This document shows positions 2,902-44,639 of a stretch of DNA of 45,917 bases, piece by piece (positions within the stretch are counted from its first letter, which is position 1; each line of letters opens with the position of its first letter). The DNA comes from a phage, in assembly GCA_014750165.1 (NCBI GenBank), contig GCA_014750165.1_4319.1; one strand, given 5' to 3'. The position numbers and the translations under genes were made by a program. The notes under the pieces are model-generated. The model ran no database searches. It was given only the letters and a program-made list of their open reading frames with translations, and was not told the DNA's origin.

Positions 2902-3221
2902 AACGAGCGGTGTATCTACAGTACCAGTCAGAGCCAACAGATGCCGAACTGGAAGCTATTGGGATGCGCCGCTCCGATTACGAAGATGAAGAGCCTGAAG
3001 TTTTACACTTCGACGAAAACATGATGAAGGCGTGGGACATTTACTGTTCAATGGCTACGCAATGGCGAGTCGGAGCTAACGGAGCTACAGGCCTAGATTA
3101 CAACGTGCTAAATTTCCTCTTTAGAGTGTATAATGTTTCTGAAGAAGAATTGGTACTCAGCGATTTACGCATCCTTGAAGCTAAGGCTCTTGAGATGATG
3201 GATAACCTGAGAAAAAAATAA
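2587..3221 (+). CDS. tail assembly chaperone G-T fusion by programmed -1 frameshift
   Basis: Second ORF (track 2910..3221) is in -1 frame relative to 2587..2901 and has no independent ATG; slippery site A AAA AAC at 2892..2898 immediately before the frame-0 stop. Confidence 0.55.
2892..2898 (+). promoter_or_regulatory. -1 ribosomal frameshift slippery heptamer A AAA AAC
   Basis: X XXY YYZ heptamer in frame with upstream ORF, followed by TAA; -1 reading continues into 2910..3221 frame. Confidence 0.55.
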
Positions 3222-3256
3222 CCCGCTTCGGCGGGTTTTCTATTATGGAGGCTTAG

Positions 3257-6241
3257 ATGGCAACAAATGAATTAGCCGGAATCACACTAGCCGTAGACGT
3301 CTCGCAAGTAGACAGGGGCACGCAATCCCTACAGAAGTTCAGGCAAGCTAACCAGCAAGCCGCTTCCGGCATTAGTGAATTCGTCAATGCTGAGCAGGTT
3401 GCTAAAAACCAGGCAAGAGACACAGCTCGCGCACTGGCTGAACAGCAAGCATCTTTAGCTAAATTGCAAACAGCTATCGACCCAACGGCTGCAAAGTTCC
3501 GCAAGCTGCAAGAGGCCGCAGTGGGTCTTGATAAGGCATTCGCGGCTGGCGTAGTTCCTGATGAGGAATTTTTCCGATTAGGCGAGGCGATTGAAACGCA
3601 GAACGCAAAACTTGCTCGCTCACGTGCAGCGCTAACTGAAGAGGGAAGAGCGGCTGCTCAGGCTGCAAAGGATAAGGCAAAAGCGAAGGCTGAAGCTGAT
3701 AGATTCATTGCATCACTTGAGCGTCAGGCTCAAGCAGCGACATTGACGCGAGAGGAGTACCTAAAGTTACAAGCGGCCCAGCTTGGAGTTAGTTCCCAGG
3801 CTGCACCAATCATTGACAGAATCGCCGACGCATCACAGAAGGCAAATACCCAGTTAATTGCTCAGAGTAAGGCTTTTCAGAAATCAGGATTAAGCGCCGG
3901 GCAATACAAGAATGCCATATCTCAACTACCAGCGCAGATTACTGATATTGGCACGTCGCTTGCTGGCGGAATTCCGATTTGGCTTATTGCAATTCAGCAG
4001 GGCGGGCAAATTAAGGATGCTTTTGGTGGTATTGGCAACACCTTTAGATTCGCGCTTGCGGCCTTAAATCCATTCAATGTTGCTGTTGGTGTTTTGGGTG
4101 GGGCTCTTGTGGCTCTTGGTGTTGGTGCGGCTCAGGCTGAAAGTGAATTCAGGGCGTTAAACTCCGCAATTGCGTTCTCAAACAACTCTACAATCGCATC
4201 AATCTCTCAGGTTAGAGAGTTGGTTAGCTCTGTTTCTGATGCAACGGGTGCCACCAGAGGACTTGTGACTAGCATCGCAACAAGCCTTACTGAGCAAGGG
4301 AACCTTACGCTGACGCAGATTGACAAGATTACTAAATCGACCGCAAGATGGGCGCAGTTGACAGGTAAGGATGCGAAGGAGATTACTGGTTACTATAACC
4401 AGATTGCGAGCGACCCAATACAGGGTTTAGTTGATTTGGATAAGCGCTTTAACTTCCTCACGCAGGGGCAGTTGACGACAATCGAAAACCTGAGAAAGAC
4501 AAAGGGAAAGGTTGAGGCTGTTACCGCCGCAATTGACATTTTCAGCAAGTCGCAGGAAGCCAACCTTAACGACATAGCGGCGCAGTTAACTCCGCTTGAG
4601 CTAGCCTGGAATGATTTCAGAAAGTACATCTCTGATATCTGGGATGCAATTAGTCGTAGAACGGTTGGGGCGCTAAACCTTTTTGTTGATGTAATCGCCG
4701 GAACGATTGAACAGATTAGGGTGTTCATTAACCAGGGCGACGTGCTGATTGGTGAGTTTGTAATCAGTGCAACGCAAGCGCTGCAAAACATCCCTGGTCT
4801 TGGCGATGCTGGAAATAATGTAATATCTGAGCAGCAGAAGATTATCGATGCTGCCAAGAGGCAAAACCTTGAGCTGGAAAAGTCCATCAGGGAGAGAGAT
4901 GCCAGAATCAGAGAGGGAGAACTTGGTTACGTTACTCGCAGGGAAAATCAGAATACCAATGAGCAATCAGGGACCGATGAGGAATTCGCAAAAAGGAAGA
5001 AGGCACTTCAGGATGAGCTTGACGCGATCAAGAAGAATAGGAAAGAGAAAAAAGGGAGGGTTAAGGAGCAAAGGGATTTAACAATTGGTTACGAATCTGG
5101 CGTGTTGGCACTTCAGGCCCAACTCAAGGTGCTTCAGGAAAACAGGGATGTTGGCGCAGTAATAAGCAATGAGCGCAATCAGTACCTTCAGGAAGAGGCT
5201 AAATTCAGGATTCTTGAGCAGAGGCAGCTTGATGGCTCGATTACCAAAGAGCAAGCAAGACTTCTCATTGAGAAGGATAAAGTACTAGAATTGGCAAGGC
5301 AGAAGGCTGAACTTGGCGACCAGATTGTTTTGCAGGAGCGAGCCAATAAGTTAGCTGAAGATAACCGTAAAAAGATCCTTCAGATTAACAATGAAGCAAG
5401 TAATATCGACTTGGGTGCTGGCCTGTCTTCTCGGGAGCAGCAGAGACTTAAAGAGATACAGGCACTCAAATCAAATCAGGAAAACGCTGGTGGATCTGTC
5501 AATGACGTTGATTTCCAGCAATTACTGGAAGCAAGAAAGGAATATTACAAGCAGGAGGATAATCTTAGATCAGACTGGCAATCCGGTGTAACATCCACTC
5601 TCGCCGACTTGACAGAGAAGTACACTGACTACAACCAGATTGCTAAGGACTTAACCGTTGCGGCATTTGACGGGATAACAGAGCAAATTACAAACCTTGT
5701 AACCACTGGTGAGACGAACTTTAGGGAGTTCACCGCAAGCATCCTCAAAATGATTGCGAAGATTGCAACTCAATTGCTTTTGGTTAAGGCTATTGAATCT
5801 ACAATCAAGAGCTTTGGTGGTGACACTGGTGCAGGTAGCGCTTTCGAGTCAATAAAATCAGCAATTGGTTTTGCTGGCGGTGGCTACACTGGTGATGGTG
5901 GGAAATATCAGCCAGCAGGAACCGTACACCGCGGTGAGTTTGTATTCACAAAAGAAGCGACAAGCCGAATTGGTGTTAAAAACCTATACGCACTGATGAA
6001 AGGTTATGCAAACGGCGGAGCGGTTGGTGGTCAATCTGGTTATGCTAATGGCGGCTTGGTTTCTAGTGGCTCAGATGTTAATGTTAGCGGCATCACTGTT
6101 AACGTAAACTCGGGTGTAGGTAGCGATCCGGAACAAGCTAAAGCATTGCAGAGTGGCGTTAAGGCAATAGTAGCGGAAGAGATTGCTCAGTCTTTCCAGC
6201 AAGGCGGCCGTGCTTATGCTTACCTTCGCGGATTCAACTAA
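3257..6241 (+). CDS. tail tape measure protein
   Basis: 994 aa, Ala/Gln-rich coiled-coil N-terminal two thirds, hydrophobic segment (GGIPIWLIAIQQGG...), Gly-rich C-terminus; position after G/GT. Confidence 0.85.
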   Translation: MATNELAGITLAVDVSQVDRGTQSLQKFRQANQQAASGISEFVNAEQVAKNQARDTARALAEQQASLAKLQTAIDPTAAKFRKLQEAAVGLDKAFAAGVVPDEEFFRLGEAIETQNAKLARSRAALTEEGRAAAQAAKDKAKAKAEADRFIASLERQAQAATLTREEYLKLQAAQLGVSSQAAPIIDRIADASQKANTQLIAQSKAFQKSGLSAGQYKNAISQLPAQITDIGTSLAGGIPIWLIAIQQGGQIKDAFGGIGNTFRFALAALNPFNVAVGVLGGALVALGVGAAQAESEFRALNSAIAFSNNSTIASISQVRELVSSVSDATGATRGLVTSIATSLTEQGNLTLTQIDKITKSTARWAQLTGKDAKEITGYYNQIASDPIQGLVDLDKRFNFLTQGQLTTIENLRKTKGKVEAVTAAIDIFSKSQEANLNDIAAQLTPLELAWNDFRKYISDIWDAISRRTVGALNLFVDVIAGTIEQIRVFINQGDVLIGEFVISATQALQNIPGLGDAGNNVISEQQKIIDAAKRQNLELEKSIRERDARIREGELGYVTRRENQNTNEQSGTDEEFAKRKKALQDELDAIKKNRKEKKGRVKEQRDLTIGYESGVLALQAQLKVLQENRDVGAVISNERNQYLQEEAKFRILEQRQLDGSITKEQARLLIEKDKVLELARQKAELGDQIVLQERANKLAEDNRKKILQINNEASNIDLGAGLSSREQQRLKEIQALKSNQENAGGSVNDVDFQQLLEARKEYYKQEDNLRSDWQSGVTSTLADLTEKYTDYNQIAKDLTVAAFDGITEQITNLVTTGETNFREFTASILKMIAKIATQLLLVKAIESTIKSFGGDTGAGSAFESIKSAIGFAGGGYTGDGGKYQPAGTVHRGEFVFTKEATSRIGVKNLYALMKGYANGGAVGGQSGYANGGLVSSGSDVNVSGITVNVNSGVGSDPEQAKALQSGVKAIVAEEIAQSFQQGGRAYAYLRGFN

Positions 6242-7416: not shown

Positions 7417-7430
7417 CACTTTTTGTTAAG
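7413..7430 (+). promoter_or_regulatory. gene-boundary palindrome cassette, variant copy
   Basis: ATAGCACTTTTTGTTAAG followed by GCGCA..TGCGC inverted repeat; precedes HNH gene. Confidence 0.4.
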
Positions 7431-7482
7431 AGGAAGGCGCAGGAATGCGCTATCCTCTAATCTCTTAAACTGGAGATTAAAA

Positions 7483-7968
7483 ATGAACTGGAATGAAATT
7501 TTCGAATACAGAGATGGCAAGATTTATTGGAAAGTTAGCCCTGGCAGGAGGGCTAAGGTTGGTTCGGAAGCTGGATCAAATCAAATAAAAGGGTATAGAT
7601 TTGTGAAATTTCACGGAGTTTTATATATGACACACAGGGTTATTTGGGAGATGCATAACTGTGAAATACCGCATGGAATGGAGGTTGACCATTTAAATCA
7701 CATTAGGGACGATAACAGGATAGAGAATTTAAGAGTTGTTACAAAGTCAATTAATCAGAGGAATGCATCTAAAAGAATTGATAATAAAAGCGGTTTTACA
7801 GGCGTTTCTTGGTATCCCAAATATTCAAAGTGGAATGCTTACGCGACAGTAAATTCCAAGAGGTTTAATCTTGGTTACTTTGAATCAAAGCAAGATGCCT
7901 ATGTGGCTGTTAAAAAATTTAGGTCCATAAATGATTTTCATAAAAACCATGGAGTTGATTTATGTTAA
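7483..7968 (+). CDS. HNH homing endonuclease
   Basis: MNWNEIFEYRDGKIYWK...; HNH core EVDHLNHIRDDNRIENLR; ATG 7483 after GGAGA; paralogous to 27993..28485 and 34044..34535. Confidence 0.8.
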   Translation: MNWNEIFEYRDGKIYWKVSPGRRAKVGSEAGSNQIKGYRFVKFHGVLYMTHRVIWEMHNCEIPHGMEVDHLNHIRDDNRIENLRVVTKSINQRNASKRIDNKSGFTGVSWYPKYSKWNAYATVNSKRFNLGYFESKQDAYVAVKKFRSINDFHKNHGVDLC

Positions 7969-14791: not shown

Positions 14792-14810
14792 TTTAGCAAT
14801 TCGTGCTATT
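14792..14810 (-). promoter_or_regulatory. gene-boundary palindrome cassette (minus orientation), upstream of MTase-like gene
   Basis: Reverse complement AAATAGCACGAATTGCTAAAG; downstream TGCGG-TATAAT-CGCCGCA inverted repeat; overlaps Rha gene stop. Confidence 0.5.
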
Positions 14811-15453: not shown

Positions 15454-15548
15454 TTTAATCTCTCTATATGTTTTGACTTCGAAAATTTCGTATTCAAGCA
15501 GCACCATTGCCGCCATGAGCCTAAATATACCCAAAGATACCCAGTTGT

Positions 15549-15570
15549 CTTTAGCAAATCGTGCTATTTA
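15549..15570 (-). promoter_or_regulatory. gene-boundary palindrome cassette, variant (minus orientation)
   Basis: Reverse complement AAATAGCACGATTTGCTAAAG, 22 nt upstream of TATATT; upstream of Rha gene. Confidence 0.4.
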
Positions 15571-15664
15571 TAGCCAATTTCACCATAAATCACGGTTACA
15601 CGTAACCGATGTAACTCGATGTATACAATCTCATCCGCGGAAAATGATATACGCGCTGTTACGC

Positions 15665-15935
15665 CAATTTACGCAACAGTTACATTAAAATATCTATATA
15701 TATCAACCTTTTACTCTTATTATTATTATTATATATATTACTGTGTATATCATGTAACTACTTCTATAGAGTGTTCCGGTTATAATTTTAATATCATGTG
15801 ATTTTATACAGTATTGCACGGCAGCTATACCAATGCACCATCAGCAATAAATGATATACACGATATACACGCCGGTTACATTGAGCTATAGCTGGGCTTA
15901 GATGCCAAAAAACGTAACTAATGGCAATACCTACA
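15665..15935. repeat. AT-rich intergenic repeat copy A with (TTA)n tract
   Basis: Left arm ~95 bp and right arm ~50 bp closely similar by eye to 35041..35295; contains TTATTATTATTATTATATATATTACTGTGTATATCATGTAAC; strand-switch region. Confidence 0.6.
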
Positions 15936-16252
15936 CGGAATTACAAGGATTCACGCGTAAACTTAAATCAACGATTGGCAAAACCAATTGGACTGGCTAC
16001 GGTGACGAATATATAGTTAACCCATCGAAAGCAAGCAACCAGAGAGATATAGAAATGGTAAAGAAGATAGATTTGTACTCAGCTCACACCGTAATACTGC
16101 CTAGCTATGCTCCGGTTTTTATTGGTGTAACTTACGAAATAGCTCTTAAATTATGCGAGTCATCATATGGTAAAGACTGGAAAAATAAATCAATTAGAAT
16201 AGAAAAGACAACTAAAGAGCATATCGAAATCATCGTGGGGTTGCAAAAATGA
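15902..16252 (+). CDS. hypothetical early protein
   Basis: First gene after repeat A; 116 aa; no recognisable motif. Confidence 0.4.
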   Translation: MPKNVTNGNTYTELQGFTRKLKSTIGKTNWTGYGDEYIVNPSKASNQRDIEMVKKIDLYSAHTVILPSYAPVFIGVTYEIALKLCESSYGKDWKNKSIRIEKTTKEHIEIIVGLQK

Positions 16253-21279: not shown

Positions 21280-21325
21280 TTGGATTGTAGCATCTTTCAG
21301 GTATAAAAAAACCTCCCGAAGGAGG

Positions 21326-22249
21326 TTAGTCTAGTAATTCACTTGCTTTGTATATTCGTTTTCTTATTCCTGACTTAAAAAAATTATCATCATTTGGCAT
21401 TACCACATCAAGATCGCGATCGTCAGCAACGGCGAGTAAATCAAAAGCGTGGCGAGTACAAGCGACGCGTAACTTGTAGTTTCTAAGCGCGTAAGCAACC
21501 ATTTCCATGTTGTAACTGGAGTGGCAAACAAGCACACAGCGGTTCCCTGTAGCAATGTGAACGCGATAGCCGTCAATGAAATTATCGACCAGATAAGCGT
21601 ACTCATCATCTTTAAAGGAACCAATAACAGCAATAGACTGGCGAGTATAATCTTTTGCAGCATAACTAACATCTCCCTCTTCATTGATAAACATTACATT
21701 GCACATTTCTTCTGATATACCATCACTATAGGCCATAAAACAAGGCACTGCGTGTATTAGTTCGCCTGATTTTGCCCTGCCAACATCAAAACCAAACTCA
21801 CTATAGATACCCTCGTATGTACTGAGCGGAGTTGATTCTACTCTTTCCGTCCTTTCCATTATCTCTAAGCATCTTTCGTGATCAATCTTGGCTCCCATTT
21901 TGTAGATCTGGGTTCTTGATGCTTGCTTGTTTGCCTTGTTGACAACCTCAACCGGGATAAGGTTTAGCCACTCACCGAGAACGTCGATACACTCACTGAA
22001 TGACTCGCCTCGAAGCTTCTGGACCCAGAGAATTCCATCCCCTGAGCCGCATTGGTTGCAGATAATGCCGCCATCACCCTCCTCGCTAACCTTGTTAGTC
22101 CATCTTGCCCTATCGTTGCCGCCACAATAAATGCACGGCTGATGCTTCTTAGTCTGGAAAAACTTAGGATCTGCGCCGCATATATTGACAAGAGCCTTAT
22201 CCCACAGGCCTCTCATTCTTGGTAGAACCTCTTTCTTATCGTAGTGCAT
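21326..22249 (-). CDS. putative DNA primase (Zn-ribbon plus Toprim-like region)
   Basis: CIYCGG...CNQCGSGDG zinc-binding motif near N-terminus; acidic Toprim-like segment (LLAVADDRDLD); assignment tentative. Confidence 0.45.
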   Translation of the reverse strand: MHYDKKEVLPRMRGLWDKALVNICGADPKFFQTKKHQPCIYCGGNDRARWTNKVSEEGDGGIICNQCGSGDGILWVQKLRGESFSECIDVLGEWLNLIPVEVVNKANKQASRTQIYKMGAKIDHERCLEIMERTERVESTPLSTYEGIYSEFGFDVGRAKSGELIHAVPCFMAYSDGISEEMCNVMFINEEGDVSYAAKDYTRQSIAVIGSFKDDEYAYLVDNFIDGYRVHIATGNRCVLVCHSSYNMEMVAYALRNYKLRVACTRHAFDLLAVADDRDLDVVMPNDDNFFKSGIRKRIYKASELLD

Positions 22250-22307: not shown

Positions 22308-22781
22308 TTACCCTTTAGCTTTTCGTGCTGCCTCGTTAGCGGCCTTAATCTTGCGCCATGATCGACACTCTGGCTTGGTGGCTAACTCAGCCTCAGTAAC
22401 CACGCGTAGCATGTGACGCTTTTTGCACCGGAGTGTCAGTGGCTTGCCGTTACCGTCAAATTGCAGGTCTGGTCGGCAGAATGTAGCACGAAAACCCTCT
22501 CCGTTTCGTTTGTAGTAGTTGTGCGACAGTTGAGCACCGCGCGCAGAAATCATACCACGCTTAAACCATTCTTCTACAGCCTGCGGAGTTACCTTTAACT
22601 TCTTTGCAATATTCGCCTTTGTGACGAAGAAATCAAGGAGCATCTCAAGCCGCGCGCGTAGCCCGGCTCTTACTTCATCTTTTAAAACGTAGTAGCCTGA
22701 AGGTCGTTTACGTTGTTTTTTGTCTTCAGTGCGGATAGTTCCGTTATTACCGTTAGTGGTTCGCTTGTCAACTGCATTCAT
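22308..22781 (-). CDS. HTH DNA-binding protein (putative transcriptional regulator)
   Basis: Basic N-terminus and helix-turn-helix-like segment KKLKVTPQAVEEWFKRGMIS; divergent from helicase gene. Confidence 0.5.
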   Translation of the reverse strand: MNAVDKRTTNGNNGTIRTEDKKQRKRPSGYYVLKDEVRAGLRARLEMLLDFFVTKANIAKKLKVTPQAVEEWFKRGMISARGAQLSHNYYKRNGEGFRATFCRPDLQFDGNGKPLTLRCKKRHMLRVVTEAELATKPECRSWRKIKAANEAARKAKG

Positions 22782-22792
22782 TTCATCACCTC

Positions 22793-22813
22793 AATAGCAT
22801 TTTTTGTTAAAAG
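22793..22813 (+). promoter_or_regulatory. gene-boundary palindrome cassette, variant
   Basis: AATAGCATTTTTTGTTAAAAG in divergent region upstream of helicase. Confidence 0.35.
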
Positions 22814-22882
22814 TCATTCAGATTTGATGGTAGTATTGTACTCAATTAAACGCTACAAGACAATTTTTATAGGAATTTAGAT

Positions 22883-24877
22883 ATGTTGCCTATCGAGAAG
22901 CTGGTTGCAAACTTCGATAAAGAAAGAATCAAGCAGATTCAGAAAGATTATCAGTTTGGCGAGATAACCCCTTACGAGTTCCAGTGCGTAACATTCGATG
23001 CAATCGGAAAGGCTATTGGAAAGTACGAGGCCCCATTTATCGCTGACCTTTCCGTGTCTGCGGGTAAGACAATTATTCTCGCTATGATTGGAAAGCGTAT
23101 GGAGCAGCTTGGTCTTCCTTATATGGTCCTCTCTCGCCAGTCAGAGATAATCAGCCAGAACTCAGAAGAGCTTCGCAACTTCGGCATCCGTAACAGCGTC
23201 TATTGCGCTGGCCTTAACGTTAAATCAGTTTACTACCCAACCATAGTCGCTAGTGAAGGTACCGCGGCTAACGGCTTGTTTAAGGGGCTTGGTGACTATG
23301 TTCCGGCAGTTATCGCAATCGATGAGTGTCACATGCTTGATGCTATGGATATCGTTGAAGCCGAGGAGAACGAAGAAACATTTGAGCAAATGAGCACAAA
23401 GAAAGGTGAGATGGTATTTAAGGATGGTGTTAATACCGGGTTGCTTGGCACTGGCCGCGCGCAGTACACGCTAATCATTACCGAGATGAAACGTCGTTGT
23501 CGTGAGAAGTACGGTCGCGAGCTTAGGATTTTTGGCCTTACTGGTAGCCCATATCGTAACAACGATCACATTGTCGTTAGTAACCAAAATGTCCGTGGAT
23601 TCTGGCGCAAAACGGTAATACAAGTACCAACAAATTACCTTGTTGATTTGGGATTCGTTGTTCCAACCGTTTACGGAGAGGTTGGTGATTTGGGTTACGA
23701 CCTTGCAGAGTTTGCGCCAGACGGAAGCGATGGCGTTAAAGACTTTAGCAAGAAAGAAATGGAAGCAATGGCTGCAAAGATTCACGACAACCAATCCATG
23801 ACTCAAAGGATAATGGGTTTTGTTGTAAAAATACTTGAGACTCGAAACGCCGCATTGGTCACCTGTGCTGGCAAACTCCATTGTGATGAGGCTGCTGCGG
23901 CACTCCCAGACGGATACCCCTACGCCATCATCACAGACTCCACTGGAGAGAGGAAGCGCAGAGAGATTCTAGCTGATTGCCAGACTGGAAAGTACAAAAT
24001 AATATTCCAGATTGGCTGTCTAACTACGGGCGTAAACCAGCCATTGTGGGATACCAGCGTTATACTGCGCAAGATTGGCAGTTTGACTTTGATGATTCAG
24101 CTTCTTGGTCGTGGCATGCGAAAACTAAAAAAGGCGCACATAGATGCGGGGTTCAAGAAGGAGGATCACTTGGTATTAGACTTTGCCGGAGCGCTGGATG
24201 ATATGGCCGAGCTTTACTTTGACCCAATAATTGAAGAAATTCAGGCTGAGAAGTTCAAGTCCTCAAGGAAAGGTGGTGATGAGGCCCGTCAGTGCCCGCA
24301 ATGTGGATATGAGAACTCACCATTTGCTCGACGCTGTGGCAATAAGATTGATGGTGTTAGATGCGATCACTTCTTTCAGTTCACAACTTGCGAAGACATT
24401 ACGGACCCACAAACTAAATCGGTAATTAAAAAGGGATGTGGCGCTCGTAACGACATAGCGGCAAAGGTTTGCCGAGAGTGCGGTGAGATGCTTAAAGACC
24501 CGAATGCTAATCTGACCGGTAAGATGTATCGTCGAGGAGATTACTTGCGCGTTTATGATTTCCAGATTGGATTGAGTAAAAATCAAACAGGAATAGTAGT
24601 TAAATACAACATCATGGCACATAACGGAGAGAGGTTTAACGCGTGGGAATTCTTTAACCCTGAGTCTGACCATCGAGTTTGCAGTGTTCTATGGAAAAAC
24701 TTCTGCCTAGCTCATATTGAGAATCGAACAGAAGCAGCACGAATTGGAAGATTAAAGAATGCTAGAATGATCATGACCAACGTAGATAAGTTCCGTGCGC
24801 CAGTGCAAGTAACACACAGAAAAAACGGCAAAGGAAAGGACGTGATCGCGTTTAAGAATTTTGGAGAATTGAAGTGA
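22883..24877 (+). CDS. SF2 DNA helicase with C-terminal zinc ribbons
   Basis: Motif I SAGKT, motif II DECH, motif VI QLLGRGMR; C-terminal CPQCG...CDHF...CRECG cysteine pairs. Confidence 0.75.
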   Translation: MLPIEKLVANFDKERIKQIQKDYQFGEITPYEFQCVTFDAIGKAIGKYEAPFIADLSVSAGKTIILAMIGKRMEQLGLPYMVLSRQSEIISQNSEELRNFGIRNSVYCAGLNVKSVYYPTIVASEGTAANGLFKGLGDYVPAVIAIDECHMLDAMDIVEAEENEETFEQMSTKKGEMVFKDGVNTGLLGTGRAQYTLIITEMKRRCREKYGRELRIFGLTGSPYRNNDHIVVSNQNVRGFWRKTVIQVPTNYLVDLGFVVPTVYGEVGDLGYDLAEFAPDGSDGVKDFSKKEMEAMAAKIHDNQSMTQRIMGFVVKILETRNAALVTCAGKLHCDEAAAALPDGYPYAIITDSTGERKRREILADCQTGKYKIIFQIGCLTTGVNQPLWDTSVILRKIGSLTLMIQLLGRGMRKLKKAHIDAGFKKEDHLVLDFAGALDDMAELYFDPIIEEIQAEKFKSSRKGGDEARQCPQCGYENSPFARRCGNKIDGVRCDHFFQFTTCEDITDPQTKSVIKKGCGARNDIAAKVCRECGEMLKDPNANLTGKMYRRGDYLRVYDFQIGLSKNQTGIVVKYNIMAHNGERFNAWEFFNPESDHRVCSVLWKNFCLAHIENRTEAARIGRLKNARMIMTNVDKFRAPVQVTHRKNGKGKDVIAFKNFGELK

Positions 24878-25293
24878 ACATAACAGATAAAGAATATTAC
24901 ATTGAGTTTTACCCAGGTTCAGTTAAGTCATGCCCGAAAGAGGATGACGAACAAATCTTTTGCTCTGATTGGGTTAAGTATAACTATCCAGAGATGGTAT
25001 TTTTCCACTGTGTGAATGAGGGTAAGAAAACCATTGGTCAAGCAAGAAAAGACCAGGCAAAGGGTTTGCTCAAGGGCGTATCAGACTGCATGTTTTTGAT
25101 ACCTGAATCCGTGCGAGGAAGGTATCCATTTGGCGCAATAGAGCTAAAGAGAGCTGGAAAAACACAGGCTAGCCCAGTCAGTAACGAGCAGAAGTCATTC
25201 CTGAAAAGTGTAAGGGAATCAGGAGGTTTCTCCGCTGTGGCTTACGGTCGCGAGGGTTTTCTGGCAGCATTCAAAGAAATGATTTCTAAATAG
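24874..25293 (+). CDS. VRR-NUC domain nuclease
   Basis: 139 aa; D...ELK core (FLIPESVRG...AIELKRAGK) of the PD-(D/E)xK VRR-NUC type; GTG start overlapping helicase stop. Confidence 0.6.
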   Translation: MNITDKEYYIEFYPGSVKSCPKEDDEQIFCSDWVKYNYPEMVFFHCVNEGKKTIGQARKDQAKGLLKGVSDCMFLIPESVRGRYPFGAIELKRAGKTQASPVSNEQKSFLKSVRESGGFSAVAYGREGFLAAFKEMISK

Positions 25294-25308
25294 CACGAAT
25301 TGCTAAAC
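25288..25308 (+). promoter_or_regulatory. gene-boundary palindrome cassette
   Basis: AAATAGCACGAATTGCTAAAC then TATAGT and CATAGAAACGA; precedes 25371. Confidence 0.5.
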
Positions 25309-27992: not shown

Positions 27993-28485
27993 ATGAATTG
28001 GCATGATTTTTTTATACTATAAGGATGGAAAGGTTTTCTGGAGAGATCCGCACTGCACGAGATTGAAGCCAGGTGATGAGGCTGGTAGTAGGCACCATAG
28101 GGGTTATTGGTATATTCGTAGATATGACAAAACAATGTCAAGGCACCGAATCGTATGGGAGATGCACAACGGAACAATACCAGACGGTATGGAGATAGAT
28201 CATATAAATCACGTGCCTGGTGATGACAGAATTGAAAACCTAAGAATGGTCACAAGAAGGCAAAACAATCAAAACAAAAAATTAAATGAAAGAAATACAA
28301 GCGGACACGTCGGGGTTAGCTGGAACAAGAAGACAAACAAATGGAGAGCAATGATAGGCATAAGGGGAGAGGACGGAAAGAGGAAAACTTTATACGTTTA
28401 TTATGGTGATTCTTTCGATGATGCGGTATCAGCAAGAAAGAAAGCAGAGGCTGAGCACTCGTTTCATGAAAATCACGGTAAATAG
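27993..28485 (+). CDS. HNH homing endonuclease, interrupted by frameshift at T7 tract
   Basis: ATG 27993 with strong RBS (AGGGGGA) encodes MNWHDFF then stops; HNH body (track 28003..28485) is in +1 frame; an 8th T would restore MNWHDFFLYYKDGKVFW, matching the paralog N-terminus MNWNEIFEYRDGKIYWK. Confidence 0.7.
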
Positions 28486-31382: not shown

Positions 31383-32966
31383 TCACCCCAGCAGTCGTGG
31401 ATTAATGTAAACTTTATCACCAATCAGGCAAGTATAGTTTTTCTCATCAAGCATTGGCAGTAAGTGATCTTTAATCTTCGTCATTACTCCAGCCTGAGCC
31501 TCGAATGGCTTAACCTTGCGAGCAGCTTCATACAATGAACGAATACCAACTACGCCCTTCCCGTTTTTCCCTTGCTTGATCAGGATATCAATCAGCTTAT
31601 TCATCTCGGCATTGTCGCCAGCGTGACCAGCTGCGCTGGCAGATGACAGGTAAGTCTTGCTTAGTTCCTGGAACATGATTACAGCTTCTTGCATGGTATC
31701 AAGTTCAATCTCTCTGGATTTCTGCGGACTCCCACCGTTAGGGTTGAACCAGTTACGAACAGCATGAAGAACGGCTGCAATCCTGATGGCCTGTTTATCG
31801 AACTTGCCCAGGGCACCACGTAACATTGTGTGTGAATACTTCCCGCCATCAGCAAGGTGAGGTTCCATTTCTTGGCGCGCTCGGTTGAGGTACTTCATCG
31901 CTGAGTTGCTTACTGTCAGCTTAACATCTTGCTCATTCATTATCTCATGAACTAAGCGGAAGTAATCAGCCTTTAGTCCACCATCAATTGGCTCGTAAGT
32001 TGAGTCTCCATTCTCATCAACAAATACACGCTCGCCCAGGAATGATTTTTCACGTACAAGCAGAAAACGCTCAGATACACCGATACCACGCGCACCGGCA
32101 TTCATGATTGCATTGATTGTTTCGTCTTGCGCAATTACAGAGATGCAACCCAAAGCAACGAAGCTCATGTTGTTCTCTGCGTTAGCACGCGCAATAGATA
32201 CGTTACCCGCATCCCATGCTTTAAGCACTAGTTCGCTGTTCGTTTTCTTTGAGCCATCACCATAGGTCATGCCAAGCAGTGAGTTCACGCTCGTTGCTTC
32301 ATCCGAGATTACAGCAAAGTTACCCTGACGGTTGTTTATTCGCGCAAGACCTTCCGGCGTGGTATCGGACACGGGGAAAACGATATCGCATAGCTTCTCG
32401 AGCTTCTCCTCTAACTCCTCTTTCTCCTCAAAAAGTGAGGCCATCTCTGATGGTGACTTTTCCTGTTTCATCTCTTTTGATAATGCAGACAGCTTTGCCA
32501 TAATCTTTTTACGCTCACGCTTTCGCACTTCATTCAGCCGCTCAGTCTCAGCAATCATTGGAGCAATTGAAAGTGAGTTAATTGCTGATTTACCTGTCGA
32601 TGGCGGCTGGCTTGTCACGACATAAAGCGAAGTTGGCTGCTGAGTTCCGTGATACTCAACAGTGAATCGACCAAGCATTGCAGCGGAAATACACCCCAGG
32701 AAGTGCATATATGCGGACGACTCAGGAAACTGAACAGAACGAGCAATATTGGCTGACAGCTTACCAACAACATCAATATCATTGCCTAGTGAGATTACAG
32801 GGTACTTGTCATTAGCCGCATCAATCTCTACAGGTGCCTTCCAGAATGATTGAGACTGGCGATAGCCATTGGCATTAATAGCCACGCGCAGGGGTGGGAG
32901 GTTGTCTGCGGCTGCAATTGCCATAACCTGTTCAACAGATAGCTTATCTTCGTTGAAATCAAACAT
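31383..32966 (-). CDS. putative replication ATPase (primase C-terminal DUF3987-like P-loop domain)
   Basis: Deviant Walker A TSQPPSTGKSA and Walker B FAVISDEAT; 527 aa; family assignment from motif recall only. Confidence 0.45.
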   Translation of the reverse strand: MFDFNEDKLSVEQVMAIAAADNLPPLRVAINANGYRQSQSFWKAPVEIDAANDKYPVISLGNDIDVVGKLSANIARSVQFPESSAYMHFLGCISAAMLGRFTVEYHGTQQPTSLYVVTSQPPSTGKSAINSLSIAPMIAETERLNEVRKRERKKIMAKLSALSKEMKQEKSPSEMASLFEEKEELEEKLEKLCDIVFPVSDTTPEGLARINNRQGNFAVISDEATSVNSLLGMTYGDGSKKTNSELVLKAWDAGNVSIARANAENNMSFVALGCISVIAQDETINAIMNAGARGIGVSERFLLVREKSFLGERVFVDENGDSTYEPIDGGLKADYFRLVHEIMNEQDVKLTVSNSAMKYLNRARQEMEPHLADGGKYSHTMLRGALGKFDKQAIRIAAVLHAVRNWFNPNGGSPQKSREIELDTMQEAVIMFQELSKTYLSSASAAGHAGDNAEMNKLIDILIKQGKNGKGVVGIRSLYEAARKVKPFEAQAGVMTKIKDHLLPMLDEKNYTCLIGDKVYINPRLLG

Positions 32967-34043: not shown

Positions 34044-34535
34044 CTACCTCATTCCGCTGTTCTTGTGGTATTTCGCATTAACCTCAGCAACAATCCTCGC
34101 CTCGCAAGCACAGATAAAGTCTATGAATGTTCCTAAACATACAATTTTCCCATCTATGCTAATTCTTGCCGACCACTTACCTCTAACATCCATGTTCACA
34201 CCAGTTACCCCTGGCTTTCTTCTTACATACCTTTTGAGATTCTTATGATTTTCCATGTGGCTAACTAGCCTTAAGTTTTCAATCCTATTATCAGACCTAT
34301 CTCCATTAATGTGGTCGATCTGCATTCCTTTTGGTATATCTCCGTTGTGAATAATCCAGACCGCTCGATGGCAATAAATTAGCTTATTCTTAACCCTAAA
34401 TGCCTTGTATCCATGGCTATGCATGCAGCCAGCCTCGTCACCAACTTTTACTTGGGATGAGTTATACTTTCTGTAAAGTTTCCCATCCTTATACTCTACG
34501 GCGTTTACAATATCCTCAACTAGAATGGCACACAT
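34044..34535 (-). CDS. HNH homing endonuclease
   Basis: HNH core QIDHINGDRSDNRIENLR; paralog of 7483 and 27993 genes. Confidence 0.8.
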   Translation of the reverse strand: MCAILVEDIVNAVEYKDGKLYRKYNSSQVKVGDEAGCMHSHGYKAFRVKNKLIYCHRAVWIIHNGDIPKGMQIDHINGDRSDNRIENLRLVSHMENHKNLKRYVRRKPGVTGVNMDVRGKWSARISIDGKIVCLGTFIDFICACEARIVAEVNAKYHKNSGMR

Positions 34536-34696
34536 GATTCACACCCCCAATCCCCACAACAGAAATCTTCATCCTCTGACTGGAATTGCTTAGCCAAATC
34601 AATATCCAACTTTCCGCGGACAACAATTTCGGTGTAATCTTCGTTAAGTCCGATCAGCGCGCATTCGTGGCGTAACTCGTCTTTATCAATCTTCAT
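34520..34696 (-). CDS. hypothetical small Cys-rich protein (58 aa)
   Basis: MKIDKDELRHECALIG...FCCGDWGCESCVPF; ends 16 nt inside HNH start; cassette upstream; approx coords. Confidence 0.3.
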   Translation of the reverse strand: MKIDKDELRHECALIGLNEDYTEIVVRGKLDIDLAKQFQSEDEDFCCGDWGCESCVPF

Positions 34697-34748
34697 ATCT
34701 ATCTCCTCGTTTTGATGAGTTAACTATATCCTCCATGACCCCCAATGT

Positions 34749-34770
34749 CTTTGGCAAAAAGTGCTATTCG
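34749..34770 (-). promoter_or_regulatory. gene-boundary palindrome cassette, variant (minus orientation)
   Basis: Reverse complement CGAATAGCACTTTTTGCCAAAG then TATAGT and CATCAAAACGA. Confidence 0.4.
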
Positions 34771-35040
34771 TTAGATTTATTGATTGTTGCATATATTGCA
34801 ATGATTATCATGACTATTGCACATATGGCAATATTGCTTCAGATGCAATGATGTTTTTGATTGTTGCGAAAAGTGAAATGAAGTGGTGAGTGAGTGAATG
34901 AAAGATGGATGGACTACCATACAAGTTGATTTTTATTCTTGCTGAGCCATTTTCACGCATACGCGTTATAAAAGTTATGCCTTGTGGATGATGCCACCCT
35001 CCGCAGTAATCGTGCACGCCTATAACGCTGAATTACGCAA

Positions 35041-35295
35041 TGGTTACACTATAATATCTATATATAACAACCATTTAGTATAATTATTATTATTATATAT
35101 ATTACTATGTATATCATGTAACCACGCATCCGGCGGGGGTCGATAGTTTTTCTATGAAAATGACATTTTCTATATATATAAGGATAGGCATATACCCTCC
35201 CCGATTTCCGCGGAAATCCATACACAGGCAAATTACATACGCTATAGCTGGGCTGAGGTAGCAAAAAGCGTAACCGGGGCCAATATAAACACGAA
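35041..35295. repeat. AT-rich intergenic repeat copy B with (TTA)n tract and relic gene start
   Basis: Arms match 15665..15935; right arm retains an ATG-less in-frame relic (GTAGCAAAAAGCGTAACCGGGGCCAATATAAAC) of the 15902 gene start. Confidence 0.6.
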
Positions 35296-35372
35296 ATAAC
35301 ACTTGATAACGTGTATATGTGTGTTATTATGGATTCATCTTAACGAAGGGCAACCAATCAGGAGTAATGAAT

Positions 35373-35891
35373 ATGTCAGAACATAAAGAAGCAGTAAGTC
35401 TCGGTGAGGTGGTTCGTTACATGGCTGGCCAGGCTTTGGCTAGCGATAATAAATCATTTGCGGTTCCATTGCGCATGATCGTACAGCAAGTGTATGGACT
35501 TGATAAAGTGGATATGATGAGGGTGTACGAAGAGGACCTTACGCCTGGTGGTAAGTATCATCTCAAGAAGCTGAAGGCATCATACGTTTCAAACACAGTA
35601 AGCCGCATGCCTGAAATCAAAGCTGCTAACGTCCGGTCCATGTTCTCACTGAAGGACATGGAGTTTAATGAGGAGGAAGTTCGATGTGCGGTAATCTCAC
35701 TTGTGCCAGGCGCTATCAATACCGGGTCGCGTAACAAAGCAGAAGCAGAGAAGGAGGCGGCTATCATTGAAAAATTCAAGAAGCGACTCTTATCCGTTAC
35801 GCCAAGCGTCATTCACTTGAAAGGTGAGGAGCTTCAGGGTGCAATGTTCGCACTGTCCGCATACCAGGAACTTATTAAGGAGACAAAGTAA
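35373..35891 (+). CDS. hypothetical early protein
   Basis: Start at MSEHKEAV after AGGAG; first gene after repeat B. Confidence 0.45.
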   Translation: MSEHKEAVSLGEVVRYMAGQALASDNKSFAVPLRMIVQQVYGLDKVDMMRVYEEDLTPGGKYHLKKLKASYVSNTVSRMPEIKAANVRSMFSLKDMEFNEEEVRCAVISLVPGAINTGSRNKAEAEKEAAIIEKFKKRLLSVTPSVIHLKGEELQGAMFALSAYQELIKETK

Positions 35892-44528: not shown

Positions 44529-44639
44529 TAATTAAGATATATAAAGCCTCCTTCGGGAGGTTTTTTTATACCATTGCGTGGGCTAAAAACTCGTGTATAA
44601 TGAATCCGTAGACACCTAACTGAAAAGGAACAATAAAGA

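Follow-up and report, generated by a model that had tools for sequence, protein, structure and literature searches.

T1 belongs to the classical T phages; its relatives are known both as common contaminants and as therapy candidates. In recent genome papers on T1-like phages the replication origin and most transcription signals are still called unknown; according to the TLS and SU57 papers no origin could be found, and none was identified for these phages in the literature that we covered. The DNA analyzed here (45,917 nt, hereafter the window) is the genome of a T1-like (Rtp-type) coliphage of the Drexlerviridae/Braunvirinae, and an AT-rich non-coding element is present in it twice, as copies A and B. 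We asked what such a pair of elements could be, considering replication origins, early promoters, packaging sites, recombination sites and a small RNA or protein.

Two copies of an AT-rich non-coding element

Pairwise alignment recovered both copies at the positions where the first-pass annotation had placed them. The left arms (plus strand, 15656-15761 in A and 35020-35125 in B) align without gaps over 106 nt at 85% identity (blastn: 86% over 101 nt, E 2e-30), and the right arms (plus strand, 15885-15945 and 35241-35301) at 75% over 61 nt. The arms had been described as recurring almost unchanged, which is too strong for the right one. The centers were expected to be diverged, and 15762-15884 and 35126-35240 indeed cannot be aligned. 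The annotation had also foreseen that the likeness might be one of low complexity only. This is not the case, since ordinary sequence is matched too (TTACGCAA..GTTACA, CAACC, TGTATATCATGTAAC, GCTATAGCTGGGCT and CGTAAC). The 25-mer TATATTACTNTGTATATCATGTAAC has exactly 2 occurrences in the window, with 0 expected (100 shuffles). Runs of at least three TTA units are likewise just two in the window, (TTA)5 at 15717-15731 and (TTA)4 at 35084-35095.

The element had been assigned to a region of about 270 bp, which underestimates the non-coding stretch: region A extends from about 15571 to 16054 and region B from about 34697 to 35372. Both are divergent strand switches in the window phage, as proposed for A, while in TLS and KP36 region A is not. 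The start at 15902 drawn for the first early gene right of A is not credible because motif blocks and a 1-nt indel fall there in an alignment of 11 phages; the real start is the ATG at 16055. Similarly, the ORF at 34814-35017 (minus strand), drawn over the probable pac stretch, has no PHROG match and is probably spurious. Database ORFs drawn across the A and B regions, such as these two, should be removed.

Frames can also be drawn in the element (15619-15801 and 15902-16252 on the plus strand, 35058-35264 and 35114-35302 on the minus strand), and the stretch downstream of the core is conserved in A, as a small protein or a small RNA encoded within the element would have it. We regard this as the least probable of all the explanations considered. 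The drawn ORFs are not common to A and B, relatives show single-base indels and substitutions without three-base periodicity, and the records of some relatives leave the stretch unannotated. Moreover, Rfam gave no match, either at gathering thresholds or at E up to 1, and the folding energies are not better than those of shuffled sequences (z -1.0 and +0.7). The element is non-coding and shows no structured RNA.

Region A is limited on its left by a 21-nt T1-type direct repeat (ATAGCACGATTTGCTAAA, 15548..15569, minus strand), part of the leftward promoter unit of the Rha/anti-repressor gene and outside the duplicated element. The palindrome CGGTTAC-AC-GTAACCG, followed by another GTAAC (15593..15616), forms an outer cluster of GTAAC-type sites, which is found in region A only and is nearly invariant across 11 phages. 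The motif map and the repeat search then defined a left repeat unit, X (15632..15693, plus strand), composed of TCCGCGGAAAATGATATACGCG, three WTACRC direct repeats at 15649, 15659 and 15669, and GTTACAT at 15679, with a spacing of 10-11 bp. The AT-rich core (15681..15740, 88% A+T) is the second least stable 60-bp duplex of the genome and contains ATATCTATATATAT, the IHF-like TATCAACCTTTTA (15701-15713) and the (TTA)5 run, overlapped by a (TA)4 run at 15730-15737. An inverted-repeat search found that GTGTATATCATGTAACT (15743..15759, plus strand) closes a bracket round this core, as it pairs inversely with ATGATATAC (15644-15652) and with AGTTACAT (15678-15685); the inner distance from GTTAC to GTAAC is 70 nt in every A copy and in the B copy of the window.

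Further right, the variable center of A (15816..15850) is poorly conserved in relatives and unrelated to copy B, and unit X recurs as direct repeats at 15839..15889 (plus strand), with AAATGATATACACG, ATACAC at 15856 and 15865, and GTTACAT at 15875. The right arm (GCTATAGCTGGGCT..AAAAAACGTAAC..ACACGGAATTAC) is conserved as separate blocks in the 11-phage alignment. Beyond it lies the proximal sigma-70-type promoter of the recE operon, TGGACT-17-TATAGT (15989..16017, plus strand), with conserved hexamers and a variable spacer, followed by a leader (CCATCGAAAGC..GAGAGA) and the ATG at 16055. Its equivalents are P51 in TLS and TTGACT-16-TATAAT in T1.

The left limit of region B is again a 21-nt T1-type direct repeat in a leftward promoter unit (34748..34769, minus strand), and next to it a stretch of TTGCA, TGATTG and GTGAGTGA repeats (34781..34920), the probable pac region, adjoins copy B and is separate from it. 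The left arm of B carries TAACGC, TTACGC and TTACAC repeats, the AT core and TGTATATCATGTAACC. This core (35049..35108, 88% A+T) is the least stable 60-bp duplex of the genome, with the (TTA)4 run and a (TA)4 run at 35094-35101. The center, unrelated to that of A, contains GGGTCGATAGTTTTTCTATG and the 16-bp palindrome GATTTCCGCGGAAATC (35203-35218) and is conserved in one subset of Braunvirinae B regions only. After the right arm comes the proximal promoter TTGATA-16-(TG)TATTAT (35303..35330, plus strand; 13.6 bits), the second best sigma-70 match in the genome, and the first early gene right of B (DUF7174) has its start codon at 35373. Equivalents of this promoter score 12-14.6 bits in Rtp, Rogue1, TLS and KP36, and less in T1 (11.6 bits) and in N35 and 12210I (10.1-10.6 bits).

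The vicinity of the pac stretch suggests a role in packaging, with B a terminase-binding site at the headful packaging end and A a second or auxiliary one. The T1, Rtp and TLS records begin within region B, the 2.8-kb terminal repeat of T1 has its beginning there, and the TLS pac was mapped to it by restriction analysis; the SU57 paper places the genome end in the probable pac stretch. On closer positions, however, base 1 of the T1 record, where its terminal repeat also begins, and the AGATTT site of TLS fall in the equivalent of 34781-34920, that is in the separate TTGCA/GATTTG repeats 100-200 bp left of B, which have no counterpart in region A. A second pac 19 kb away would moreover yield two packaging series, not reported in the pac literature on TLS and SU57, the SU57 paper raising multiple pac sites merely as one possible reading of a gel smear. 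Packaging is therefore a very improbable function for the pair.

Duplex stability, conservation and repeat words

The first-pass annotation had considered the core a plausible unwinding element, and duplex stability agrees with it. In the window, no other 60-bp duplex is as unstable as the two cores (z 5.4 and 5.2; the next reaches 3.1), and the two least stable duplexes occupy the equivalent A and B positions in 9/9 genomes tested (z 4.6-5.9), which cover five lineages (5 Braunvirinae, Rogue1, T1, TLS and KP36) infecting Escherichia and Klebsiella. Throughout the family, A is found upstream of the recE-erf-ssb operon and B between two early gene arms beside the pac end. The cores measure about 60-90 bp, with 85-92% A+T and many TA steps. 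Results also showed that A resembles B inside every genome (KP36 85% over 130 nt, Rtp 83% over 123, Rogue1 82% over 68, T1 75% over 91), while core proteins are mostly 40-65% identical between these lineages, the DUF3987 helicase reaching up to 73%. We found no similar DNA in plasmids or in complete E. coli genomes; most hits of an exact-pattern scan of viral contigs were phages with a GenBank record, one metagenome contig being the addition, and a locus search based on recE gave only 7 close relatives.

Conservation is highest at the core of A. The block 15679..15778, the second most conserved 100-nt window of the genome, is 99.5% identical to four Braunvirinae genomes, with a genome median of 87.7%, which points to strong purifying selection on it. 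Core A is near-invariant in 11 phages, (TTA)n length included. The (TTA)n tract had been called a microsatellite, with length variation among isolates as a check. Such variation is not supported: 10/11 A copies share one length of the (TTA)n(TA)n run, and B copies that differ in (TTA)n compensate through (TA)n, which keeps their total length within about 1-2 nt.

These data also bear on the proposal that the copies are recombination sites bounding the replication/lysis segment, either as homology patches or as recombinase sites by which the 19-kb segment would be exchanged or inverted. The gene content beside the cores does vary, the Rha gene being present, absent or on the opposite side of A in relatives, and two unrelated sequence types are found right of the B core. 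Nevertheless, the A copies fall into one orthologous group and the B copies into another, recent exchange between them is not seen, and the most conserved block is far above what a homology patch needs. The inversion in KP36 moves A together with the recE module, and A and B are not its end points. A site-specific recombinase was found neither among the 18 window ORFs screened nor in the annotation of the fully listed relatives, and no genome among the records examined has the A-to-B segment inverted or deleted exactly at the arms. The proposal is thus not supported, and we give it as little credit as the packaging one.

We also looked at the short repeats that cluster near the cores, mostly in A. 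Their words differ with the phage: GTAAC in the window and T1, GTGAACA in TLS and GTAAGAT in KP36. Regions A and B hold 13/19 genome copies of GTAAGAT in KP36 (several of them 10 bp apart; p 1e-17), all 6 copies of TGTAACA in T1 (p 2.5e-10), 4/8 of GTGAACA in TLS (p 2e-5) and 7/23 of TGTAAC in the window (p 1e-6). The words flank the core in inverted orientation; the arms are perfect, 8 nt long and separated by 66 nt in A, and 13 nt long in B. Helically phased repeats stand beside core A (WTACRC/GTTACA at 15649-15679 and a second set at 15856-15876) and are weak or absent in several B copies; as several B copies (N35, 12210I and Rogue1) have zero GTAAC sites, iteron-like arrays occur chiefly in A. 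That the word changes from one phage lineage to another argues for a factor of the phage and not of the host. The divergence of the candidate binding proteins follows the change of word too weakly to single out the binder.

Signals of the host type were searched as well. Neither A nor B contains DnaA boxes (TTWTNCACA) or GATC, of which the genome has 126 sites, and an oriC-like, DnaA-dependent origin with DnaA boxes and GATC clusters was thus rejected. The IHF consensus occurs 4 times in the genome, with about 3.5 expected, and its single match in core A is not conserved in other lineages. Resemblances to LexA, OmpR, TyrR and GntR-like sites, noticed by eye, were dropped as unsupported. Coding-strand GC/AT skew lies between +0.10 and +0.16 in all gene blocks, whichever way they run; it follows transcription only, and GC skew therefore gives no replication signal.

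A possible early promoter or replication origin

A strong early promoter had been proposed at this site. A promoter-like arrangement is indeed present: core A contains TTTACT-18 nt-TATATT (15710..15739, plus strand), with 9/12 matches and 10.2 bits, equal to the proximal recE promoter; its spacer is the (TTA)n(TA)n run and its predicted start falls within TGTATA (15744-15749). Core B contains TTAGTA-17-TATATT (35075-35103; 8.8 bits). What is not supported is that the element serves as the promoter of the flanking genes, which have their own promoters outside it. TGTATA was tried as a -10 element and rejected because position 6 differs from T in most copies.

By considering these signals, the core could be a distal early sigma-70 promoter with an upstream control region and no replication role. 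It would consist of a -35 (TTTACT/TTTAGT), the (TTA)n(TA)n spacer, the -10 TATATT, a start in TGTATA and an A/T-rich, UP-like upstream part, and the repeats and the right arm would be operators for a phage regulator timing the recE-erf-ssb and the DUF7174-led early operons. The distance from the -35-like hexamer to TGTAT is 32-35 nt in 24/25 copies of three subfamilies (Braunvirinae, Rogue1 and TLS) despite their variable repeat make-up; a sigma-70 promoter would require such fixed spacing, which counts against a pure origin. The invariant length of (TTA)n in A, the orientation of the core, which follows the downstream operon even in the KP36 inversion, and the right arm extending to the proximal -35 in B all suit a promoter, as does the fact that T1-like phages have no RNA polymerase gene of their own. 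In the GenBank record of EC3a, phiSITE-predicted promoters are already marked at the core. Our literature search found no transcript map of any T1-like phage.

On the other side, the scores of the core promoters are modest, and T1_B, TLS_A and KP36 have no positionally conserved hexamer pair, whereas AT-richness itself is kept in every lineage. A proximal promoter that is stronger (12-14.6 bits) and conserved already serves each operon, and a transcript from the core would have a 250-310-nt leader without detectable structure. About 90% A+T over 60-90 bp exceeds what a promoter with an UP element needs, and conservation in A is undiminished about 70 nt beyond the predicted start. Finally, the core and its flanking words vary between lineages, yet A and B are alike inside each genome, which would be unexpected if the invariant host polymerase were the sole reader. 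We rank the promoter second, as a close rival and a serious possibility.

Our preferred explanation, tentatively held and falling short of an even chance, is that the two copies are paired cis-acting DNA-unwinding elements belonging to the replication origin region(s) of T1-like phages. It is supported by the instability and conservation of the cores, the likeness of A and B in each genome, the clustered lineage-specific words (that of TLS being the core of a P4 iteron) and the position of the flanking genes' own promoters, which sit outside the element. In addition, the phage encodes proteins that could act there. The DUF3987 protein (31383..32966, minus strand; Pfam 8.8e-42) is an MCM-like (SF6) helicase. 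A PDB sequence search with it gave no significant match, and a fold search was needed: the top 35 PDB matches of its model (pLDDT 89.6) are all MCM, and the literature also supports this assignment. The model ends in a winged-helix-like helix-strand-helix-helix-strand-strand arrangement (451-521), and this C-terminal part diverges faster than the ATPase core. On these grounds the helicase is a candidate for loading at the putative origin. The primase (21326..22249, minus strand; zinc ribbon of primase-helicase) is homologous to the primase domain of P4 alpha (tblastn of residues 31-263 against the window primase, E 9e-11; E 5e-13 to 1.6e-9 in five genomes and 0.001 in KP36), and no homologue of the C-terminal origin-binding domain of alpha was found in the same genome searches. 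A Cro-like regulator (22308-22781) is another candidate repeat-binding protein.

We infer that initiation at A and B would proceed as follows. The AT-rich core, rich in TA steps, would be the point where the duplex opens most easily, bracketed by short repeats, best developed in region A (in the window WTACRC/GTTACA to its left and TGTAAC/CGTAAC to its right; the words differ in other lineages). A phage-encoded DNA-binding protein, possibly the winged-helix end of the MCM-like helicase or the Cro-like regulator, would bind these repeats, and melting of the core in vivo would admit the MCM-like helicase and the P4-alpha-type primase, with synthesis by the host polymerase. Given the promoter-like geometry within the core, opening may be aided by RNA polymerase binding or transcription, in the manner of T4 oriF/oriG and the T7 primary origin. 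Some observations stand against an origin. The elements lie away from the primase/regulator/helicase cluster (21.3-24.9 kb), since A has recombination genes as neighbors and some 2 kb separate B from the gene of the MCM-like helicase; the core orientation matches the downstream operon in every lineage; and two origins in one small genome are a rarer arrangement.

A more specific version is doubtful, and we propose it with greater reserve. A phage protein specific to the lineage would recognize both elements and load the MCM-like helicase together with the P4-alpha-type primase, in a two-site system of two origins, or of an origin and an enhancer like P4 ori and crr, in which RNA polymerase bound inside the core helps opening. 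If true, it would locate the origin of a classical T phage and provide a model, in a bacterial virus, of how an MCM-family helicase is loaded at its origin.

In conclusion, as the pair is present in every relative checked, the paired cores are the best candidates so far for the origins of this family, or else special early promoters. If origins, they would mark the loading site of an MCM-like helicase in a bacterial virus; if promoters, they would define a special early class with a fixed-length microsatellite as spacer. Each genome offers two short, precisely bounded sequences with the same properties in five lineages, so that the origin question becomes directly testable.

Comparison with known systems

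The closest known element within the same phages is the 21-nt intergenic direct repeat aaATAGCACnnnTTGnTAAAA described for T1-like phages (TLS paper, PMC11447400). It is also a repeated non-coding element, and one copy edges each region, but its sequence is different and it has 20 copies in the window (0.58 expected) against two. It is always found about 20 nt upstream of a TATAGT-like hexamer, near a gene start, and none of the 20 matches to ATAGCACnnnTTGnTAAA falls within 15571-16054 or 34770-35373, the nearest being at the region edges.

Among sigma-70 promoters with UP elements (lacUV5-like with -35 TTTACA, T5 early), the likeness lies in TTTACT, the 18-bp A/T spacer, TATATT and the A/T-rich upstream part. 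Unlike in these promoters, the A/T content is much higher, the A/T-rich part is longer, and the core stands 210-270 bp upstream of a stronger proximal promoter.

T4 oriF/oriG and the T7 primary origin combine a promoter with an A/T-rich unwinding region, at several intergenic sites upstream of early or middle genes. The elements described here similarly join a promoter-like signal to an A/T-rich intergenic region; in T4 and T7, however, the unwinding element is downstream of the promoter, whereas here the A/T run makes up the promoter spacer and the part upstream.

In archaeal and plasmid-type origins (ORB-DUE-ORB, iteron, SaPI ori), inverted initiator sites surround an unwinding element. Inverted short motifs bracket the A/T-rich core here too, and an MCM-family helicase would need loading, but no Orc1/Cdc6-like or Rep-like initiator was identified and several B copies have no bracket.

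Bacillus phage SPP1, a pac-type siphovirus of about 45 kb, has two distant origin copies, oriL and oriR, made of repeat boxes and A/T-rich sequence. The window phage resembles it in type and size and in its two far-apart copies of repeat and A/T-rich sequence. SPP1 differs in having oriL within the initiator gene and a known initiator, G38P, and the T1-like elements have no sequence relationship to SPP1.

Satellite phage P4 needs both ori and crr, iteron-bearing cis elements to which its alpha primase-helicase binds. As with this pair, two separate non-coding elements with A/T-rich DNA are found in one small genome, and the window primase is homologous to the alpha primase domain. In the P4 record the ori and crr repeats are short, about 10 bp apart and in both orientations, and TLS has the heptamer TGTTCAC round its A and B cores, its word being the core of the P4 type-1 iteron TGTTCACC. 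This heptamer is found only in TLS, whereas the words of the window are of the GTAAC type and not the type-1 iteron. The phage helicase is MCM-like (DUF3987) and not of the alpha type, and P4 ori is no stability minimum of its genome, while the T1-like cores are.

The duplicated AT-rich element and its surroundings

The phage belongs to the Rtp group of T1-like siphoviruses (Drexlerviridae/Braunvirinae), and the window is its essentially complete genome, with the gene order of T1 and Rtp and about 87-89% identity to Rtp, G8, 12210I and 2725-N35 over the alignable three quarters. The record of 2725-N35 (MN840485.1) is also exactly 45,917 bp long, which appears to be a coincidence: this is a distinct phage, which aligns over about 34 kb at about 89% identity and has a different gene content beside region A, the non-coding DNA around the first copy of the element (copy A). 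Region A itself is found in 99 related phage records at 81-95% identity.

The first-pass annotation had reported two copies of an AT-rich repeat, and both are present where it placed them. Its description of the arms as almost unchanged suits the left arm (15656-15761 versus 35020-35125, 85% over 106 nt) better than the right one (15885-15945 versus 35241-35301, only 75% over 61 nt), while the centres, which it called diverged, cannot be aligned. Pairwise alignment showed that the likeness is not of low complexity alone, as it takes in ordinary sequence besides the A/T run. A 25-nt left-arm pattern occurs exactly twice in the window, with none expected, and the only two (TTA) runs of at least three units in the genome lie one in each copy. 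The stretch around copy A, put at about 270 bp, is indeed non-coding and in fact larger (region A, about 15571-16054); it and region B (about 34697-35372) are larger than any other non-coding stretch of the genome.

Both regions have a common order, with a leftward promoter unit on the left, the duplicated element in the middle and a proximal rightward sigma-70-type promoter on the right (15989-16017, TGGACT-17-TATAGT, in A; 35303-35330, TTGATA-16-TATTAT, the second best match in the genome, in B). These proximal promoters are kept in relatives, and in TLS, for which just three sigma-70 promoters have been reported (PMC11447400), two of the three correspond to them. As they lie outside the element and are conserved, the element is not needed as promoter of the flanking genes.

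In copy A, a 60-nt unit composed of TCCGCGGAAAATGATATACGCG, WTACRC repeats at 10-11 bp spacing and then GTTACAT is present twice (15632-15693 and 15839-15889). The core (15681-15740, 88% A+T) follows the first of these and contains ATATCTATATATAT, CAACC, TTTACT, (TTA)5 and an overlapping (TA)4 run. To its right, GTGTATATCATGTAACT (15743-15759) matches ATGATATAC and AGTTACAT, both left of the core, exactly in inverted orientation; perfect inverted repeats, separated by 66 and 92 nt, thus bracket the core. The order in copy B is the same, with fewer flanking sites, and its inverted arms are 13 nt long, 85% complementary and 58 nt apart.

An 11-phage alignment excluded that the element is coding. 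The open reading frame 15902-16252 has a non-coding substitution pattern in its first 51 codons; 15902-16054 consists of conserved motif blocks parted by variable DNA, with a 1-nt indel, and is left unannotated in the records of two relatives, and the real start is probably ATG 16055. The frame 34814-35017 (minus strand) has no family match, overlaps pac-like repeats and is probably not a gene. Rfam search and RNA folding of the element revealed no known or structured RNA, and an oriC-type origin was rejected, since DnaA boxes and GATC sites are absent from both regions. The window's tRNA gene (38659-38733, plus strand; Rfam, 52.9 bits) lies where relatives annotate tRNA-Arg(TCT).

Packaging was considered for copy B, as a stretch of TTGCA/TGATTG/GTGAGTGA repeats at 34781-34920 is the equivalent of the place where the T1 record begins (base 1, the start of the terminal repeat) and where pac of TLS was mapped. 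This stretch is likely the terminase recognition and cutting region, and it places pac beside copy B and distinct from it.

Repeats and conserved segments elsewhere in the genome

The leftward promoter units carry the 21-nt T1-type direct repeat (15548-15569 in region A; 34748-34769 in region B), which is absent from the element, so the two cannot be equated. This repeat, ATAGCACnnnTTGnTAAA, has 20 copies in the window against 0.58 expected (for example 2341-2358, 14792-14809 on the minus strand, 25290-25307, 36832-36849 and 41140-41157) and includes the inverted repeat TAGCA-N5-TGCTA. The copies inspected point along local transcription; about 20 nt downstream of them comes a TATAGT-like hexamer, and after it CATCGAAACGA and a ribosome-binding site. 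This spacing puts the palindrome centre near -42, where class II activator sites lie, for which reason the repeats may be middle or late promoters that depend on an activator. The TLS paper describes the repeat and lists its function as an open question (PMC11447400). One copy (22794-22811) lies by the divergent region 22835-22977, between a Cro-like regulator and a 664-aa helicase; this region is among the most conserved 100-140-nt windows, carries TTGTCT-17-TACAAT, which scores well (12 bits) as a leftward sigma-70 promoter, and lacks an A/T-rich core.

A 100-nt direct repeat (7645-7744 versus 28156-28255, 71% identity) links two small frames, 7423-7968 and 28003-28485, whose position suggests HNH homing endonuclease genes; with a third HNH gene at 34044-34535 (minus strand), the genome carries several free-standing endonuclease genes. 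The perfect 26-nt inverted repeat CCTCCTTCGGGAGGTTTTTTTATACC (21300-21325 and 44547-44572, 23 kb apart) is in effect a pair of identical terminator-like hairpins, one on each strand.

Conservation of the element across lineages

We compared nine genomes of five lineages: the window, Rtp, 2725-N35, G8 and 12210I (Braunvirinae), Rogue1, T1, TLS and Klebsiella phage KP36. Nearest-neighbour energies put the two least stable 60-bp duplexes of all nine in equivalent places, one upstream of recE-erf-ssb and one between the two early gene arms (z of 4.6-5.9 versus 3.0-4.7 for the next best site), with 85-92% A+T in 18/18 cores. Core proteins of different lineages are mostly only 40-65% identical (up to 73% for the DUF3987 helicase), and copy A resembles copy B inside each genome. 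The observation of a duplicated element is confirmed, and it holds for the phage family as a whole.

Within Braunvirinae, A copies cluster with A copies and B copies with B, so the duplication is old and selection maintains both. The block 15679-15778 in copy A (99.5%, against a genome median of 87.7%) is surpassed in conservation by only one other 100-nt window; the most conserved 140-nt window, 3161-3300 (99.3% versus four relatives), runs from the end of the tail chaperone frames into the beginning of the tape measure gene. Length variation of the (TTA)n tract, proposed earlier as a check, is not borne out: in A the (TTA)n(TA)n run has one length in 10/11 copies, and in B changes in TTA number are compensated by TA units. 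The suggestion of recombination sites found no support either, given the separate grouping of A and B copies and the genome of KP36, whose recE-erf-ssb module has the opposite orientation to that of T1 and Rtp and carries element A along in its inversion. No similar DNA was found in the plasmid and E. coli collections searched.

Short words concentrate in regions A and B and vary from lineage to lineage: GTAAGAT in KP36 (13/19 genome copies, several at 10 bp spacing; p = 1e-17), TGTAACA in T1 (6/6; p = 2.5e-10), GTGAACA in TLS (4/8; p = 2e-5) and TGTAAC in the window (7/23; p = 1e-6), where GTAAC density is highest at region A. The arrays are mostly in A, and certain B copies have none. Because the word changes with the phage, a phage-encoded binding protein would be the candidate reader of the repeats. 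Upstream of KP36 recE (34514-35008) there are 11 GTAAGA sites, 10 of them GTAAGAT, among which are two copies of the palindrome GTAAGATGAATCTTAC; the KP36 core holds the 20-bp perfect A/T palindrome TAATAATAATATTATTATTA.

A possible unwinding element or early promoter

The earlier interpretation is partly supported: its proposal of an unwinding element or an early promoter stands, with core instability and promoter-like geometry. We tentatively rank first an origin-type unwinding element, considering (i) the extreme core instability conserved in all genomes compared, (ii) the helically phased, lineage-specific repeats bracketing the core, (iii) the A-B likeness within each genome and (iv) the proximal promoters that flanking genes have elsewhere.

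A distal early promoter or control region only is a close rival that we place slightly lower. In its favour, TTTACT-18-TATATT has a score similar to that of the proximal recE promoter, 24/25 copies of three subfamilies have 32-35 nt between the -35-like hexamer and TGTAT, core orientation follows the operon, and the EC3a record already bears predicted promoters at the element. However, the hexamers are not conserved in T1 copy B, TLS copy A and KP36, core promoter scores are modest, a stronger promoter sits downstream, and conservation of A extends about 70 nt past the predicted start. The remaining weight is shared by packaging, recombination, an RNA or peptide, and unknown functions.

The origin reading is also favoured by the phage's need for an origin and by its replication proteins, an MCM-like helicase and a P4-alpha-type primase. 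The DUF3987 protein ("DNA helicase", 31383-32966, minus strand) is modelled with confidence (pLDDT 89.6) as an MCM-type AAA+ helicase that ends in a C-terminal winged-helix-like domain, and each of its best 35 PDB matches is either MCM2-7 or archaeal MCM. Genome papers on T1-like phages state that the origin was not found (TLS, PMC11447400; SU57), which also favours this reading; no description of the paired element turned up in the literature searched. Its main value is to make the T1 origin question directly testable.

Comparison with P4 also favours an origin: the primase domain of P4 alpha has a homologue in the window primase, and P4 has two separate elements with iterons, whose core TGTTCAC is the TLS word. 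Origin and promoter readings can nonetheless both hold, as T4 and T7 origins combine the two roles.
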